A stretch of 64,000 nt of DNA from an uncultured Flavobacteriales bacterium (GCA_964445815.1 CAYULW010000002.1:27941-91940), one strand, 5' to 3'; positions 21,326 through 31,237 are shown, counted from the first letter of the stretch. Made by a program: numbers and translations. Notes: a model not told the origin generated them from the letters alone.

Positions 21326-21931
21326 TTAATTTTTACAATCGGTGATATGCGCTGTATATTCATCAAAAAATTGATCTCTGATTTTATAGTACTCGTTTAT
21401 TGTCTTAATGTGTCGTGCCTTTGGGATTAGATTGTTAAAGTAGAAATGTACCGTTGTGTTGTTACCTGGAAACATGACATAGGTAGCCAGAGTACTGCCT
21501 TTTTCTAACGTATTTCTGTTAAACCCAAAAATTTTGTATCCGTTAACTGTAAACTCATGTAATTTGTCACTGTCCATAAACTGAGAGACGGACAGGAGGT
21601 AGTCAAGGCTTTGGATTAATGTAGTTGAATCTTCTTGGTATCGTTTTGGGTCACTCTGTTCAATTTTTAGATTAATGAATTGAGCGCCAAATTCATTATC
21701 GTACAGTATACGATAACCGTCAACCCTTGAAACTCTTTTTTCTCCTTCTTTGGTTTTAAGGTCACGAAATTTTGGTGCACTATTTGGTAGTTTATCTACA
21801 GCCGTGACTTTTAGTCCTTGAAAGCTGTCATAGTCTATCAGACATTTACTTATTTTTCCACCGCCCTTAAAACCAAGTAGAACAATAGATGAGAAGAGTA
21901 GAGTCAAAATCGAAATTTTCATTTTTTGCAT
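21326..21931 (-). CDS. hypothetical secreted protein (gene B1 of repeat module I)
   Basis: Track ORF 21326..22012. I place the start at MQKMKISILTLLFSSIVLLG (ATG ~21931) because the upstream extension lies inside the 205-bp repeat. Confidence 0.5.
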   Translation of the reverse strand: MQKMKISILTLLFSSIVLLGFKGGGKISKCLIDYDSFQGLKVTAVDKLPNSAPKFRDLKTKEGEKRVSRVDGYRILYDNEFGAQFINLKIEQSDPKRYQEDSTTLIQSLDYLLSVSQFMDSDKLHEFTVNGYKIFGFNRNTLEKGSTLATYVMFPGNNTTVHFYFNNLIPKARHIKTINEYYKIRDQFFDEYTAHITDCKN

Positions 21932-21940
21932 ATTAGGTAC

Positions 21941-22145
21941 AACGTTCTGTGTATGGGCAGTAGGGACAGATTCGAAGTGCTTCACTTTCGGTTTGCCACT
22001 AAGCCTAAACAAACGTTTTTACTTTTAATTTATATTTCAATAAACGTCAGAACTTTGTTTTGGCGTTACCTGCTCAAAGAACAGGATTTTCAATTTTCAC
22101 CAAACGCCCTATTGGCTATACACCTTGTTGTAGCACGTTTTCTTT
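21941..22145. repeat. ~205-bp intercistronic element with imperfect terminal inverted repeats, copy 1
   Basis: About 85% identical to 30331..30536. Termini TGTGTATGGGCAGTAGGGC ... GCCCTATTGGCTATACACC are mutual reverse complements (12/18). Internal arm GCCAAAACAAAG / CGTTTGTTT(A/T)GGC. Spans from gene A1's last codons to ~10 nt before the B1 start codon. Confidence 0.8.
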
Positions 22146-22853
22146 TATTTTTTCTTTTAGATTAGTTTTCTCTGTGCTAAGCGATTGCTCAGAAACACCC
22201 ATTTTACTAATCGAAACTCGGAAGAGTCTTCCATTATTAACTACAAAAAAGATTTGTCCATTAATTATTTCAATTCCCTTATGAGTTTTTGAATAGTCGT
22301 ATTGAATGGCTCTATTCTTAATGGTGACCTTCTTATTGCTGAACTGATAGCCACTTGAAAACTGATTACCTTCTAATGTCTCGACTACTGACTTGGAGTA
22401 TTTTTCTAAATTTTCAATCTCTTTTTTGTCTTCTTCTTTGAATGTTACTATTAAATCATTCGTTGAGTCAGCTATAAGGAGCATTGGTTCTTCCGAATTA
22501 TTGTCATAAACTACATCTGAAGGGAGATTAATCTTGAAGTCAAAAAAATCAATTACTGTATCAGCTTTTGTAGTGTCCGCCTTTTTTAACAGATATTCAA
22601 TAACTCCTTTATATTCAGATAACGCTTCATCAGGGTTAATTGGGGTACTATCTTGCTTTATTATGATTTCTTGAGATTGTGATTCATTTACCTTAGAAAG
22701 TGAAATTACTCCAAGAATTAGCCCTGTAGCAAGCAACCCAAGCCCTGACCACAACAATCCTTGTTTTTTTTTCTTAGAGTAGGTGACTAAAAGGCCAATT
22801 CCTGCAACTGCAATAATTATATAGTTTAATAAATCTCCAATGTTCTGAAACAT
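22116..22853 (-). CDS. hypothetical membrane-anchored protein (gene A1 of repeat module I)
   Basis: 245 aa. Two N-terminal TM helices. The last 9 codons are encoded within the repeat element. Confidence 0.55.
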   Translation of the reverse strand: MFQNIGDLLNYIIIAVAGIGLLVTYSKKKKQGLLWSGLGLLATGLILGVISLSKVNESQSQEIIIKQDSTPINPDEALSEYKGVIEYLLKKADTTKADTVIDFFDFKINLPSDVVYDNNSEEPMLLIADSTNDLIVTFKEEDKKEIENLEKYSKSVVETLEGNQFSSGYQFSNKKVTIKNRAIQYDYSKTHKGIEIINGQIFFVVNNGRLFRVSISKMGVSEQSLSTEKTNLKEKIKENVLQQGV

Positions 22854-22886
22854 ATTCTGCTTGTCTTTAATGTGCTACAACATCAA

Positions 22887-22906
22887 AATAAACGGAATTC
22901 CGTTTA
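22887..22906. promoter_or_regulatory. 20-bp perfect palindrome ATAAACGGAATTCCGTTTAT (candidate operator), copy 1
   Basis: Exact palindrome, 33 bp upstream of the gene A1 start codon. The identical 20-mer (plus 3 flanking nt) recurs at 31218..31237 in the same relative position. Confidence 0.5.
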
Positions 22907-23139
22907 TTTCTACAGTCGTAAAACTACAGAATATCACTAAGCTTCATTTTGGGAATTCCTCTTCGACTGCGGGAATGTGAATGAACTTTAGAAAGTCGGT
23001 AATAAGGGTAATGAGCTCTTGTTTGGATGCCAATGTCATAAAATCTAAGATAAATTTACGACTTTGGAGACCTTTTATAGGACATTAACTTTCAAAAGAT
23101 AAGGTTTTTAGAGGCTCTTAATGTTCCGGATTACTTTGT

Positions 23140-23439
23140 TTAATTGTTGACCATATAAACTTCGATAGAACTAAAGGCCTTTTGTCTTGCTTCTAAAAGT
23201 TTTTCATAGGTTTTGCTTTTGTATACTGCATCAAAGGCTTGTTCATCTTGAAATGAAAGTACGGATACGAAGTCCGGTTGACTATGACCAAGATAGGTGC
23301 TTTTAATGGGATATTGAGCTAAAGTTTTTACACCTGTTTTTTCATAACATTGAGTAAGTCCTTCAATATAAGTGTTGAAACTTTCCATCTCATTTTTATT
23401 AATGGTAGCGACTACAATCAGTTGAATTTCATTTGACAT
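23140..23439 (-). CDS. DUF1330 domain protein
   Basis: 99 aa, dimeric alpha+beta barrel-like. Assigned from memory of DUF1330 length and pattern. Confidence 0.45.
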   Translation of the reverse strand: MSNEIQLIVVATINKNEMESFNTYIEGLTQCYEKTGVKTLAQYPIKSTYLGHSQPDFVSVLSFQDEQAFDAVYKSKTYEKLLEARQKAFSSIEVYMVNN

Positions 23440-29503: not shown

Positions 29504-29587
29504 TCTCTCAAATTAGCCCCAACGGTCTGGCTAAAATGTCGTGCAACAGTTAGATTGTTGGGGCATACACTATAGCCGTTGTTGGAG

Positions 29588-30316
29588 CTAGTGGTTTTTA
29601 TTTTCTTCTTCATTTTTCAATCTCATTATGAACCATTCAAATCCATAAAGTCCTTCAAGGTTCTTTGGAATTTCGTTCAAGTCAGTTTTTTTTCCTGATT
29701 TAAAGTCAGTCAATATAATATGTTCATGTGTTCTATCATTCCATTCGTAAGAATTCAAAGTGTCCAACTTGTTTTTTGTCCATTTGAACTCATAAAACTC
29801 GGTTTGTCCGGGATGTCCGTAGGTCATGCTGTAAGTCCGAAATTGATTTGGGTAGAATGTCGGGTTTGGTATTTCCACTTTTTTTGAAAATTGATCGTTA
29901 TTGTCATCATATAAGTAGCAGTCATAAATATCTGCTAAACAACAACCTGAGGAAGGATACCAATGGATAGCCAAATCAATCACTTTGTCACCGTTAATGT
30001 CGAAAATCGAATCTGACATAAAATTCATCCAACCAAGTCTTTCGGAAAATATTGGTTTTTCATATTCGTCCTTCTCAGAGTACACTTGAATGTAGGTGCC
30101 TGAAAAGTTTGAAAGTCGTATATACTTGTGATTAATTGAGTTTGAGAAAATATGACCTTCCTTTAGAGTCAAAGAGTCATTTTTTATGTTTTCTTTTTGA
30201 CTTTGAATCAGTTTTGTAATTGTTACTGTCGTTTTAAGACTGTCTTGATCGACTTGACAAAAACCAAATTCTGCAAGTCCTAAAATGATTGATATGGTTA
30301 ATAGTGTTCTGGTCAT
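29588..30316 (-). CDS. hypothetical secreted protein (gene B2 of repeat module II)
   Basis: 242 aa. Signal peptide MTRTLLTISIILGLAEFGFCQ. The start codon lies ~14 nt downstream of the repeat element. Confidence 0.5.
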   Translation of the reverse strand: MTRTLLTISIILGLAEFGFCQVDQDSLKTTVTITKLIQSQKENIKNDSLTLKEGHIFSNSINHKYIRLSNFSGTYIQVYSEKDEYEKPIFSERLGWMNFMSDSIFDINGDKVIDLAIHWYPSSGCCLADIYDCYLYDDNNDQFSKKVEIPNPTFYPNQFRTYSMTYGHPGQTEFYEFKWTKNKLDTLNSYEWNDRTHEHIILTDFKSGKKTDLNEIPKNLEGLYGFEWFIMRLKNEEENKNH

Positions 30317-30330
30317 TTTACATTAATCCC

Positions 30331-30536
30331 AACAGTTTGTGTATGGACAGTAGGGCAGGTACGAAGCACTTCACTTTCGGTTTACCACTAAGCCAAAACA
30401 AACGTTTTTACTTTTAATTTTCTTTTTTGTTAAACGTCAAAACTTTGTTTTGGCGTTGCCTGCTCAATGAACAGCACTCTCAATTTATTATTAATTGCCC
30501 TATTGGCTATACACCTTGTTGGTAGCAGTTTTTTTT
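30331..30536. repeat. ~205-bp intercistronic TIR-bearing element, copy 2
   Basis: Aligns end to end with 21941..22145 (about 85% identity). Same termini (TGTGTATGGACAGTAGGGC ... GCCCTATTGGCTATACACC). Begins at the gene A2 stop codon and ends ~14 nt before the B2 ATG. Confidence 0.8.
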
Positions 30537-31188
30537 AATTCCATTTATTTACGTCCTTATTCGATTCGGTTAAATATTTAAGGAAGTCCACACCCAAAAT
30601 TGTAATATTCAAAATATTGTCATCCTCGCGAAGAAGAGTGTAATTAAAAAGAAAATTCAGATACTGTTCGTAGCCATAGTTTTCATAAAATTTTGGATTA
30701 TTTTTTTTCGCATTATCATAAAAGAATTTGATGGATTCTCTAGTCTGTCCGGCATGAGAGTTTACGTGTTCTAATATTCTAATTTGAGACCCAAAAATGT
30801 CATTATAAACAGTATCATAATGTCGCATTATATAGAGAACACAACTATAATTAGTTAATCGGTCTATTTTTTCTTCTGCTGTTTTTAACTTTTCAACTTC
30901 GGTTTCAGTTGCAATAGCCTCTTTGAATGAATCTATTGTTTCAGGTCGAAATAGGCCCACAATACGGTCAATATGCGAAATTTCTTCAGTTTTCTTTTCT
31001 GTAGCTGTAGCTTGCTGTTTTGCTTCAAGTGATTTGTTACCATAACCTACTTTTGTGACGCGGTTAATTAAATCAACTAGAGGTTTCCTAAAAATCAGAA
31101 TGCCAATTATTATAACTAAAGGCCATTTCAAAGTTTCTGCAAGACTGATATAATCAATTGCTTTTTCTAAATTTTCTTGTTCGTTCAT
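30535..31188 (-). CDS. hypothetical membrane-anchored protein (gene A2 of repeat module II)
   Basis: 217 aa. One N-terminal TM helix (WPLVIIIGILIF). No domain recognised. Confidence 0.5.
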   Translation of the reverse strand: MNEQENLEKAIDYISLAETLKWPLVIIIGILIFRKPLVDLINRVTKVGYGNKSLEAKQQATATEKKTEEISHIDRIVGLFRPETIDSFKEAIATETEVEKLKTAEEKIDRLTNYSCVLYIMRHYDTVYNDIFGSQIRILEHVNSHAGQTRESIKFFYDNAKKNNPKFYENYGYEQYLNFLFNYTLLREDDNILNITILGVDFLKYLTESNKDVNKWN

Positions 31189-31217
31189 TTGTTTTCTTAA
31201 TTGCTACCAACGTCAGT

Positions 31218-31237
31218 ATAAACGGAATTCCGTTTAT
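31218..31237. promoter_or_regulatory. 20-bp perfect palindrome ATAAACGGAATTCCGTTTAT (candidate operator), copy 2
   Basis: Identical to 22887..22906. Sits 30 bp upstream of the gene A2 start codon and 40 bp downstream of the flotillin stop. Confidence 0.5.

Follow-up and report, generated by a model that had tools for sequence, protein, structure and literature searches.

Candidate integron-like cassette arrays headed by hairpin sites in an uncultured Flavobacteriales bacterium

Integrons consist of promoterless single-ORF cassettes arranged in one orientation, each closed at its 3' end by an attC site (classically 57-141 bp). This site, an imperfect inverted repeat whose cores read AAC...GTT, has R and L stems separated by an unpaired spacer, and a variable tip. 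Over 7 nt, the variable R box which closes a cassette is complementary to the 5' end of that same cassette, the entry site adjoins the recombinase gene, and the IntI insertion of the integrase is needed for folded attC sites. Clusters of attC sites and single attC sites without an integrase are termed CALINs and SALINs, respectively (IntegronFinder, PMC4889954), and the phylum Bacteroidota has been reported to be without integrons (PMC9024848; bioRxiv 10.1101/2024.07.02.601686). [quoted passage not shown] 2019, bioRxiv 10.1101/471110; PMC12247911), in which a tyrosine (XerD-like) recombinase gene is followed by a co-oriented array of short genes of 100-300 codons, with low G+C, immunity-type cargo and conserved intergenic repeats called 'reminiscent of integrons'. 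Descriptions of rAID-1 are confined to Bacteroidales, the only order said to contain close homologues (more than 50% identity) of its recombinase BF9343_RS08045, and PMC12247911 calls rAID biogenesis unresolved; text searches of these two papers (10.1101/471110, PMC12247911) returned no mention of cassette boundaries, complementary boxes, a hairpin at the entry site or a 195-bp element.

Two modules with shared sites and different genes

The DNA analysed is a 64,000-nt stretch from an uncultured Flavobacteriales bacterium (GCA_964445815.1 CAYULW010000002.1:27941-91940), referred to as the window, in which positions are counted from the first letter. A preliminary description had noted two modules of identical layout, each a palindrome followed by a membrane-anchored gene (A), a non-coding element and a gene for a secreted protein (B), and the gene order, strand and spacing were all confirmed, with A1 at 22853-22116, B1 at 21931-21326, A2 at 31188-30535 and B2 at 30316-29588, all on the minus strand. 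The duplicated element is present where it had been placed, at 21940-22149 and 30330-30540 (minus strand), the two copies sharing 84.5% identity over 213 nt (blastn E 4e-59; 84-85% over the ∼195 bp of the element itself), and no third copy was found within the window. The palindromes are an identical 20-nt stem-loop, ATAAACGGAATTCCGTTTAT, at 22888-22907 and 31218-31237, a match which grows to 44 nt at 88% when shared flanks are included. The protein pairs are non-homologous, as had been claimed: A1 and A2 give a BLASTP E of 0.6 and an hhalign probability of 0.5%, and B1 and B2 an E of 0.095, in the signal peptide region only, and a probability of 1.4%. N-terminal hydrophobic segments, described as a shared membrane anchor and signal peptide, do exist in A1/A2 and B1/B2 but are not a property of the system; their presence in both modules is coincidental, since in other genomes such a segment is seen in only 20 of the element's 56 upstream neighbours and in 17 of its 46 downstream ones. 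Genes at 19-31 kb are all on the minus strand, and G+C is 0.32-0.36 at 20-31 kb versus 0.37-0.44 over most of the remaining window.

We consider, with a probability of roughly 0.8, that each module opens a short array of integron-like cassettes and that the system is spread across Bacteroidota. Array II begins with the attI-like hairpin P-II (31218..31237, minus strand), 42 nt after the stop codon of a flotillin-like gene and separated by a 6-nt spacer, ACTGAC (31217-31212), from the GTT of the first cassette. Cassette II (30334..31211, minus strand; nhmmer E 9e-73) has a 5' box GTTGGTAGCA at 31211-31202 and a 3' box TGCTACCAAC at 30527-30518, complementary at 10/10 positions, and its 195-bp attC-like element has its 3' end at 30334, with the next GTT at 30333-30331. 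The circular site reconstructed from this cassette is predicted to form a single long hairpin, of -36.8 kcal/mol for the top strand and -39.5 for the bottom. Cassette B2 (29524..30333, minus strand), whose ORF belongs to an XAC2610-related family, has a 5' box GTTGGGATTA at 30333-30324 and a 3' box CTAGCTCCAAC at 29591-29581, matching at only 7/10 positions, and a short attC-like site of ∼70 nt which ends before GTTGGGGCTA (29523-29514) and has a predicted hairpin of -13.3 kcal/mol with a 10-bp R stem. Homologues of B2 are cassettes in an array of Salibacter halophilus and beside ligA. The third cassette (28682..29523, minus strand; ORF 29503-28877, a 208-aa lipoprotein-like protein) is a weaker case, its boxes matching at 7/10 positions; the 3' box CTAGGCACAAC is at 28880-28870, the attC-like site of ∼190 nt ends at GTTAATTAAAT (28681-28671), adjoining a TPR gene, and a repeat search identified 28849-28892 as a 61% copy of the element's left end.

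Array I, also on the minus strand, is headed by the same stem-loop (P-I, 22888..22907), 234 nt after a DUF1330 gene and followed by the spacer TTTGAT and the GTT of cassette I (21944..22881). The boxes of this cassette, GTTGTAGCAC at 22881-22872 and GTGCTACAAC at 22136-22127, are complementary at 10/10 positions, the A1 stop codon falls within the 195-bp attC-like element, and the 3' end of the element at 21944 is followed by the next GTT at 21943-21941. Cassette I was also detected in four ENA contigs from other metagenomes (L134-L137), 90.35% identical over 943 nt (window 22882-21941), the match spanning GTT to GTT precisely and neither flank being related. Cassette B1 (21195..21943) is decayed; its 5' box GTTGTACCTA is at 21943-21934 and the core triplets of its degenerate attC-like site (21325-21195) are mutated, AAG for AAC and ATT for GTT. 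A B1 homologue, 76% identical, lies in a cassette array with intact AAC/GTT sites.

The cassette rule across Bacteroidota

A 10-nt box (GTTNNNNNNN) precedes each A gene and is repeated behind it as an exact reverse complement (NNNNNNNAAC), after which the 195-bp hairpin element extends up to the next GTT. A 20-mer from the element detects 49 loci in Flavobacteriales, Cytophagales, Saprospiraceae, Marinilabiliales and Balneolaceae, over which the whole element of ∼195 bp is ∼90% conserved between unrelated flanks. Of 102 flanking proteins, 92 are singletons. The element is always situated between two co-oriented ORFs, with the same orientation as these genes in all 61 copies scored (window and genome loci L005-L053). 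Of 46 copies from diverse Bacteroidota, 34 have the 9-10 nt to the left of the element repeated as an exact reverse complement directly 5' of the upstream ORF, against an expectation of 0.97 copies computed with boxes from other loci; the box starts 10-29 nt upstream of the next ATG in 29 of these 34, and no exact box of ≥9 nt was found in the other 12 of 46. Homology is again cassette-precise between two further loci, L039 and L040 (92% over 1395 nt, different flanks). Homology common to other genomes begins with the GTT box preceding A and ceases where the 195-bp element does, leaving the palindrome and B outside, so the payload is one gene and not the two-gene A+B unit originally proposed.

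The same architecture was found in 146 attC-like sites of 32-236 nt (median 122), which have AAC/GTT cores, spacers and TATA-type L boxes in the arrangement R''(..AAC), L'', L', R'(GTT..). Because the box rule holds in most element copies and cassette I recurs from GTT to GTT between unrelated flanks, the element is, as judged from its sequence, an attC-like recombination site. The idea of a cassette system was right, whereas the conserved frame, taken to be regulatory and structural, is better explained as recombination sites, the hairpin being attI-like and the folded element attC-like.

We propose that the mobile unit is a promoterless single-gene cassette, ordered as 5'-GTT plus 7 variable nt, a short A-rich leader, the ORF, 7 variable nt plus AAC, and an imperfect-hairpin site ending before the next GTT-3'. 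The 195-bp element would represent one widespread, very conserved attC-like family which, when single-stranded, would fold into an R stem of 10 bp (the paired variable boxes of the circular cassette), a short unpaired spacer, a TATA-type L stem and a three-hairpin tip. The palindrome, 6 nt and GTT would constitute an attI-like entry site, with A1 and A2 in first position after it, like the newest cassette of an integron, and B1, B2 and the 208-aa gene would be cassettes of older date, their sites being different or decayed. Cassettes would be excised as circles by a Xer/IntI-like tyrosine recombinase whose gene lies elsewhere in the genome, insertion would occur by crossover at or beside GTT on the folded strand, and cassette genes would be transcribed by read-through from upstream. 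Recombination itself we infer from these sequence arrangements; neither a cassette circle nor a vacant site was seen for this genome.

The cargo is a varied accessory gene pool with some immunity-like proteins. A Xanthomonas T4SS effector has XAC2610 as its immunity protein, and an XAC2610-related domain is matched by 30 of 32 members of the B2 family, B2 itself scoring 34.2 against a cut-off of 35; this lends limited support to the resemblance to effector/immunity loci raised in the preliminary description. A1, A2 and B1 gave no family match and PADLOC found nothing. Elsewhere, the cargo includes one Hfx_Cass5 'integron cassette protein', and SUFU-domain and TNT-toxin-related genes are annotated in an array of Persicobacter psychrovividus (pPP2).

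Recombinases and competing explanations

A recombinase of the array-linked family was not detected in the 64-kb window (tblastn; best family HMM hit 6.9 bits), so that both hairpin sites are orphans there. Their layout matches, at the sequence level, an attI-like site found after genes for Xer-like tyrosine recombinases: hairpin, 5-8 nt and GTT directly follow the recombinase stop codon in about 25 loci, and the same layout is found after recombinase remnants elsewhere. One locus, L017 (Flaviramulus), consists of recombinase, hairpin, GTT and three cassettes, and in P. psychrovividus pPP2 the recombinase precedes a co-oriented array which is at least 78 kb long and has at least four element copies. 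In metagenomes, 556 recombinase relatives were detected, with cassette chains downstream, and many metagenome contigs break directly after the recombinase gene. The recombinase scores 236 bits against NF040815 'XerA/integron integrase' (cut-off 220), and that of L017 reaches 205 bits with TIGR02249 (cut-off 265), the match falling into two stretches on either side of the missing IntI insertion. The best solved relatives are XerA and VchIntI4, the latter (2a3v) also matched in two stretches, and the protein has an extra N-terminal domain of ∼107 aa.

Double-stranded Xer/dif-type recombination, as in pdif modules, or homologous recombination between elements, in place of a folded-strand reaction, would agree with a recombinase which is Xer-like and has no IntI insertion, but we regard it as unlikely. 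The half-sites N7-AAC and GTT-N7 lie 32-236 nt apart and only folding joins them; the sites are in direct orientation, whereas those of pdif modules alternate; and predicted energies indicate a strand bias in folding, with the bottom strand the more stable one at 94 of 146 sites and a modest mean difference of 1.2 kcal/mol (Wilcoxon p 1.6e-6). Homologous recombination would have no homology arm at the left, since the left cassette boundary is a variable 10-mer.

Slightly less likely again is a cis-regulatory unit of the B gene, acting as promoter with structured 5' leader, riboswitch-like RNA, sRNA or invertible promoter. The element ends 5-60 nt upstream of the next gene's start codon, copy II has a stable predicted fold (z = -4.4), and the central part of the element is conserved beyond the needs of a hairpin. 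Against this, the Rfam covariance models leave the element unmatched at gathering score or at E up to 5, a scan for sigma-70 promoters and terminators, which does not cover Bacteroidota-type promoters, gave nothing over shuffles, and the downstream genes are unrelated over about 50 loci. In addition, the same position in other arrays is taken by sequences of 32-236 nt which are unrelated yet share the AAC...GTT architecture, and an inverton was rejected as the element is never inverted (61/61 copies co-oriented) and has no invertase detected beside it. The element, being longer than classical attC sites and far more conserved than a hairpin demands, may have a second function, for instance as an internal promoter. 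Elsewhere in the window, SRP RNA is the sole Rfam match.

Highly improbable is a MITE-like or REP-like selfish repeat inserted by chance twice between bystander genes. Imperfect terminal inverted repeats of about 27 nt, occurrence in many genomes and the breaking of metagenome assemblies at the element, as at repeats, would be expected of one; such a repeat would, however, move on its own, in either orientation and with target-site duplications, whereas the moving unit here takes in the upstream gene from GTT box through ORF to element end, in one orientation only relative to genes, and the complementarity between the box left of the element and that 5' of the ORF is unpredicted by a MITE. Local tandem or segmental duplication of a two-gene module, its coding parts diverged beyond recognition and its non-coding parts kept by selection, is suggested by modules alike in order, strand and spacing within 8.4 kb but is refuted, in line with the preliminary description, because the element copies are not each other's closest relatives (84% mutually, which places them only 38th and 43rd of 48, versus 89-94% to copies from other genomes and orders) and cassette I has other neighbours in L134-L137. 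In addition, homologues of B1 and B2 occur in unrelated contexts, and A1/A2 and B1/B2 are without profile-level homology.

Relation to integrons and rAID-1

The integron-like cassette arrays have described counterparts, contrary to the initial assessment. With integrons they share the cassette structure, orientation, site architecture, R-box complementarity and recombinase-adjoining entry site outlined above, very long arrays in some genomes (Persicobacter pPP2), a cargo of mainly small proteins of unknown function, and one attC family homogeneous at ∼90%, like the VCRs of the Vibrio cholerae superintegron; by predicted energy, the bottom strand may also be the better folding one, as in integrons. 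They differ in a recombinase which is without the IntI insertion, falls under the integron-integrase cut-off, carries the additional N-terminal domain and is co-oriented with the cassettes (L017, pPP2 and metagenome loci); neither an IntI-clade integrase with the IntI-specific domain nor a divergent intI with attI and Pc was found. The attI-like site is itself a hairpin, the attC-like site is 195 bp with a three-hairpin tip, R-box complementarity extends over 10 nt, and the host phylum is one reported as integron-free. As two short cassette runs with no recombinase nearby, the window resembles CALINs and SALINs, cassettes away from intI, although each run is headed by an attI-like hairpin and the sites are not classical attC.

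One-strand genes, low G+C and intergenic attC-like sites in the window are rAID-1-like traits, and the cargo may be partly of immunity type as well (the XAC2610-related B2; SUFU-domain and other such genes in pPP2). An upstream, co-oriented recombinase is absent from the window but present in L017, Persicobacter pPP2 and the Salibacter array, all of which have the same element. In contrast to rAID-1, the loci come from Flavobacteriales, Cytophagales and others of marine or environmental origin, and the window contains cassettes without a recombinase.

Whether these arrays represent a phylum-wide and so far undelineated integron analogue in Bacteroidota, with an insertion-less Xer-like recombinase, folded sites, a hairpin entry and cross-order exchange, we judge to be an evenly balanced question. 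If so, an Xer-like tyrosine recombinase without the IntI insertion would do the work, single-gene cassettes would be captured via folded AAC...GTT sites at a hairpin attI-like site, arrays would reach at least 78 kb, and cassettes, including those with the ∼90% conserved 195-bp site family, would pass between orders. rAID-1 of gut Bacteroidales would then be one branch, the building of rAID arrays would be accounted for by the cassette rule, and folded-site cassette capture would either have arisen twice or predate the IntI insertion.

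Two copies of a widespread non-coding element

A non-coding element of ~195-210 bp occurs twice on the minus strand of the window, at 21940-22149 and 30330-30540, with 84.5% identity between the copies (213 nt aligned; blastn E 4e-59); no third copy emerged when the window was searched with a profile. A 20-nt stem-loop, ATAAACGGAATTCCGTTTAT, is identical 5' of both A genes, at 22888-22907 (P-I) and 31218-31237 (P-II), the match being widened by common flanks to 44 nt at 88%. The duplicated architecture of element and palindrome reported in the preliminary description is confirmed, with the ORFs positioned as listed there (A1, 22853-22116; B1, 21931-21326; A2, 31188-30535; B2, 30316-29588). 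The A1 and A2 proteins are not homologous by BLASTP or profile-profile comparison (hhalign 0.5%), nor are B1 and B2 (hhalign 1.4%), in which similarity is confined to the signal peptide; both points agree with that account. In contrast, the common design that it perceived, a membrane anchor in A and a signal peptide in B, is coincidental, as only about a third of the 102 proteins flanking the element elsewhere have an N-terminal hydrophobic segment.

The left-end 20-mer of the element, AAGGTGTATAGCCAATAGGG, has 49 exact matches in one-genome-per-species Bacteroidota, in hosts including Aquimarina, Maribacter, Tenacibaculum, Marivirga, Roseivirga, Aureispira, Ancylomarina, Mangrovibacterium, Balneolaceae and Saprospiraceae. 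Median pairwise identity in other genomes is 89.8% over the entire ~195 bp, with unrelated flanks, and sequence conservation exceeds the needs of folding. Two co-oriented ORFs invariably flank the element, the first having its stop codon ≤ ~20 nt from the element's start and the second its ATG 5-60 nt past the element's end, and 92 of the 102 flanking proteins are singletons. Local tandem duplication, the alternative named in the preliminary description, is not borne out, as the two copies in the window have 84% identity with one another and 89-94% with foreign copies; in ranked comparison they stand 38th and 43rd of 48. The two elements were acquired separately and not duplicated in situ.

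The ~27-nt terminal inverted repeats prompted inverton and MITE readings, which were rejected, as orientation is constant and mobility includes the gene. The element was not found to be carried by any phage or virus, Rfam gave no match for element or palindrome at the gathering score or at E up to 5, tRNA/tmRNA scanning detected nothing and the signal in a sigma-70 promoter/terminator scan was not above that of shuffled sequences. A 23-nt inverted repeat (22909-22931 / 21224-21246, 74% complementary) encloses cassette I together with P-I and B1; with 109 such pairs present in this region, chance is the probable explanation. Elsewhere in the window, an SRP RNA (37614-37720, minus strand; Rfam 'Bacteroidales small SRP', 109.7 bits) fits a Bacteroidota origin.

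Complementary boxes delimit cassettes exchanged between genomes

The 10 nt left of the element (N7-AAC) have an exact reverse complement, GTT-N7, located 345-1762 nt upstream and directly 5' of the upstream ORF. Complementarity is observed in 34 of the 46 copies with sufficient upstream sequence, compared with 0.97 expected when the boxes of other loci are used. In the window, GTTGTAGCAC (22881-22872) is complementary to GTGCTACAAC (22136-22127) in cassette I and GTTGGTAGCA (31211-31202) to TGCTACCAAC (30527-30518) in cassette II. A cassette extends from the GTT-N7 box through the ORF and the N7-AAC box to the end of a folded site at the next GTT. Rebuilt with its ends joined as a circle, the site has the architecture of one long predicted hairpin, in which a 10-bp R stem is followed by a short unpaired spacer and an L stem (GTGTAT/ATACAC), with bulges and a tip of three hairpins; predicted folding favours the bottom strand by 2.7 kcal/mol. 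A set of 146 sites, each flanked by validated cassettes, ranges in length from 32 to 236 nt (median 122) and has AAC-A-N-T-G..TATA ... TATA..A-C-C-GTT as its consensus; in 94 of them the bottom strand is predicted to be more stable (p 1.6e-6).

Exchange follows these boundaries. Two loci from differently classified MAGs (L039 and L040) are 92% identical over 1395 nt, a stretch that begins precisely at the GTT box and stops at the element's right end, and they are unrelated outside the cassette. Cassette I recurs in four ENA contigs (L134-L137) at 90.35% over 943 nt (window 22882-21941), where the palindrome is replaced on its 5' side by the end of another site, and B1 on its 3' side by a 98-aa gene. 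A further locus, L138, encodes an A1 homologue (42% identical) with the same boxes and a different site carrying compensating changes in the L stem. Sequence comparison thus indicates that the cassette is the mobile unit. The earlier proposal of variable two-gene payloads in a conserved frame was correct in spirit as a cassette idea, although it mis-assigned both the unit and the roles of its parts.

Arrays are linked to an Xer-like recombinase

All-against-all BLAST of neighbouring genes (371 ORFs, 49 loci) revealed no conserved partner, the single lead being tyrosine recombinases at three loci. Flaviramulus multivorans (L017) encodes a 376-aa tyrosine recombinase, and behind this gene, in the same orientation, come a hairpin, GTT and three cassettes with sites of ~125, ~130 and 195 bp. 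This recombinase scores 236 bits against NF040815 'XerA/integron integrase' (cut-off 220) and 205 bits against TIGR02249 'integron integrase' (cut-off 265), the latter match falling in two stretches and therefore indicating a recombinase without the IntI insertion. The nearest solved structures are XerA and then VchIntI4, again in two stretches. At least 556 relatives occur in metagenomes; many of their contigs stop ≤ 300 nt past the recombinase stop codon, and cassette chains are found downstream where the DNA continues (loci L073, L092, L097, L105, L110, L111, L119 and L128). At ~25 loci the stop codon is directly followed by a hairpin, 5-8 nt and GTT, a layout also present 3' of recombinase remnants at L049 and in Salibacter halophilus (L145, WACR01000003.1). 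Behind the truncated recombinase of the latter, the first cassette (1759-3319) holds a 505-aa RVT_1 reverse transcriptase between exact 10-nt boxes, GTTGTGCTGC and GCAGCACAAC; this gene may represent a group II intron or other reverse transcriptase, cassette-borne or inserted at the site.

The Persicobacter psychrovividus plasmid pPP2 (NZ_AP025294.1; L147, L148, L149) is a complete replicon of an isolate. Its recombinase, 40% identical to that of F. multivorans and scoring 421 bits with the family HMM, is absent from the plasmid gene table because the gene crosses the record origin. The array that follows it, made up of small co-oriented genes, is at least 78 kb long and has at least four element copies, ~28 cassettes being counted in 30 kb, and cargo annotations include SUFU-domain, TNT-toxin-related, DUF4272, DUF4279 and DUF6678 genes.

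The window palindromes share the hairpin, spacer and GTT form of the recombinase-linked sites. Neither tblastn nor the family HMM detected a family recombinase in the window, and its two entry-type hairpins stand alone. Array II is headed by the P-II hairpin and cassette A2 with its 195-bp site, followed by B2 with a 70-nt site (29591-29524) and a 208-aa gene whose ~190-nt site ends at GTTAATT (28681), beyond which genes look ordinary. Array I is headed by the P-I hairpin and cassette A1 with its 195-bp site, followed by B1, whose site cores are mutated (AAG and ATT). Exact matches of ≥ 7 nt, as intact complementary boxes, were not found for B1 or B2, and their intergenic DNA, read directly, contains partly matching or decayed sites. 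This re-reading is supported because homologues of the B genes occur as cassettes or in arrays elsewhere, B2 homologues as cassettes in the Salibacter array and beside ligA and a B1 homologue in another array. At the ligA locus (L143, 4990-5005) the cassette starts within the last ligA codons (..GTTGGACTAATGTAA), the insertion providing the end of this housekeeping DNA ligase gene. Every gene in 19000-31240 is on the minus strand, and G+C is 0.32-0.36 at 20-31 kb versus 0.37-0.44 across most of the remaining window. The region looks like an accessory island in which AAC...GTT sites remain in only some intergenic regions.

Cargo, related systems and significance

In the B2 family, 30 of the 32 members are XAC2610-related; XAC2610 itself is the protein that confers immunity to a T4SS effector of Xanthomonas. 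Pfam, NCBIfam and PADLOC gave no function for A1, A2 or B1. The family of A2 is large and uncharacterised, with 1828 cluster representatives at E up to 1e-3. Its proteins, of ~200-230 aa, have an N-terminal TM segment and an invariant G-S-Q, and 8 of 41 members give a weak winged-helix (HTH_45) signal, but the family profile has no significant match in the PDB; the A1 family comprises five clusters. Most cargo proteins of the 49 cassettes with the 195-bp site (alignment A7) are without a family. One of them has a hit to Pfam Hfx_Cass5 'Integron Cassette Protein' (E 8e-9), and there are further matches to Schlafen AlbA_2, DUF3885, DUF6882, DUF1643 and DUF6843.

Integrons are the textbook bacterial gene-capture machine, and by analogy the system described here would work alike. 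Cassettes would be excised as circles and inserted at the hairpin-GTT site, the newest in first place, with crossover at or adjoining GTT on the folded strand, and expression may occur through read-through. However, two defining features of integrons, an IntI-type integrase and the divergent intI/attI/Pc layout, are absent. IntegronFinder surveys recovered essentially no integrons in Bacteroidetes (PMC9024848), and Bacteroidota are listed among clades without them (bioRxiv 10.1101/2024.07.02.601686). The only related system described in Bacteroidota is rAID-1, defined by gene content, namely a recombinase, co-oriented short low-GC genes and conserved intergenic motifs (bioRxiv 10.1101/471110; PMC12247911). 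Compared by description, the cassette system fits this definition, although rAID-1 is described in Bacteroidales only, and its biogenesis and gene acquisition have been called unresolved (PMC12247911). Literature searches found no paper on integron-like elements in Flavobacteria or Persicobacter and no description of rAID cassette mechanics.

Contigs of the source organism (Logan, L001-L004) break within both 195-bp elements, one of 8399 nt (L001) reaching exactly from element II to element I; elements of this type will fragment metagenome assemblies and conceal arrays. The finding is genuine, and its rule is testable and may apply more widely. This rule, GTT-N7...N7-AAC boxes with a folded site and a hairpin entry site 3' of an Xer-like recombinase gene, permits computational delimitation of cassettes phylum-wide and renders the mechanism directly testable. 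It reveals that marine and gut Bacteroidota have a large pool of small genes, accessory and immunity-like, in horizontal circulation, and bears on the origin of integron integrases from Xer recombinases.
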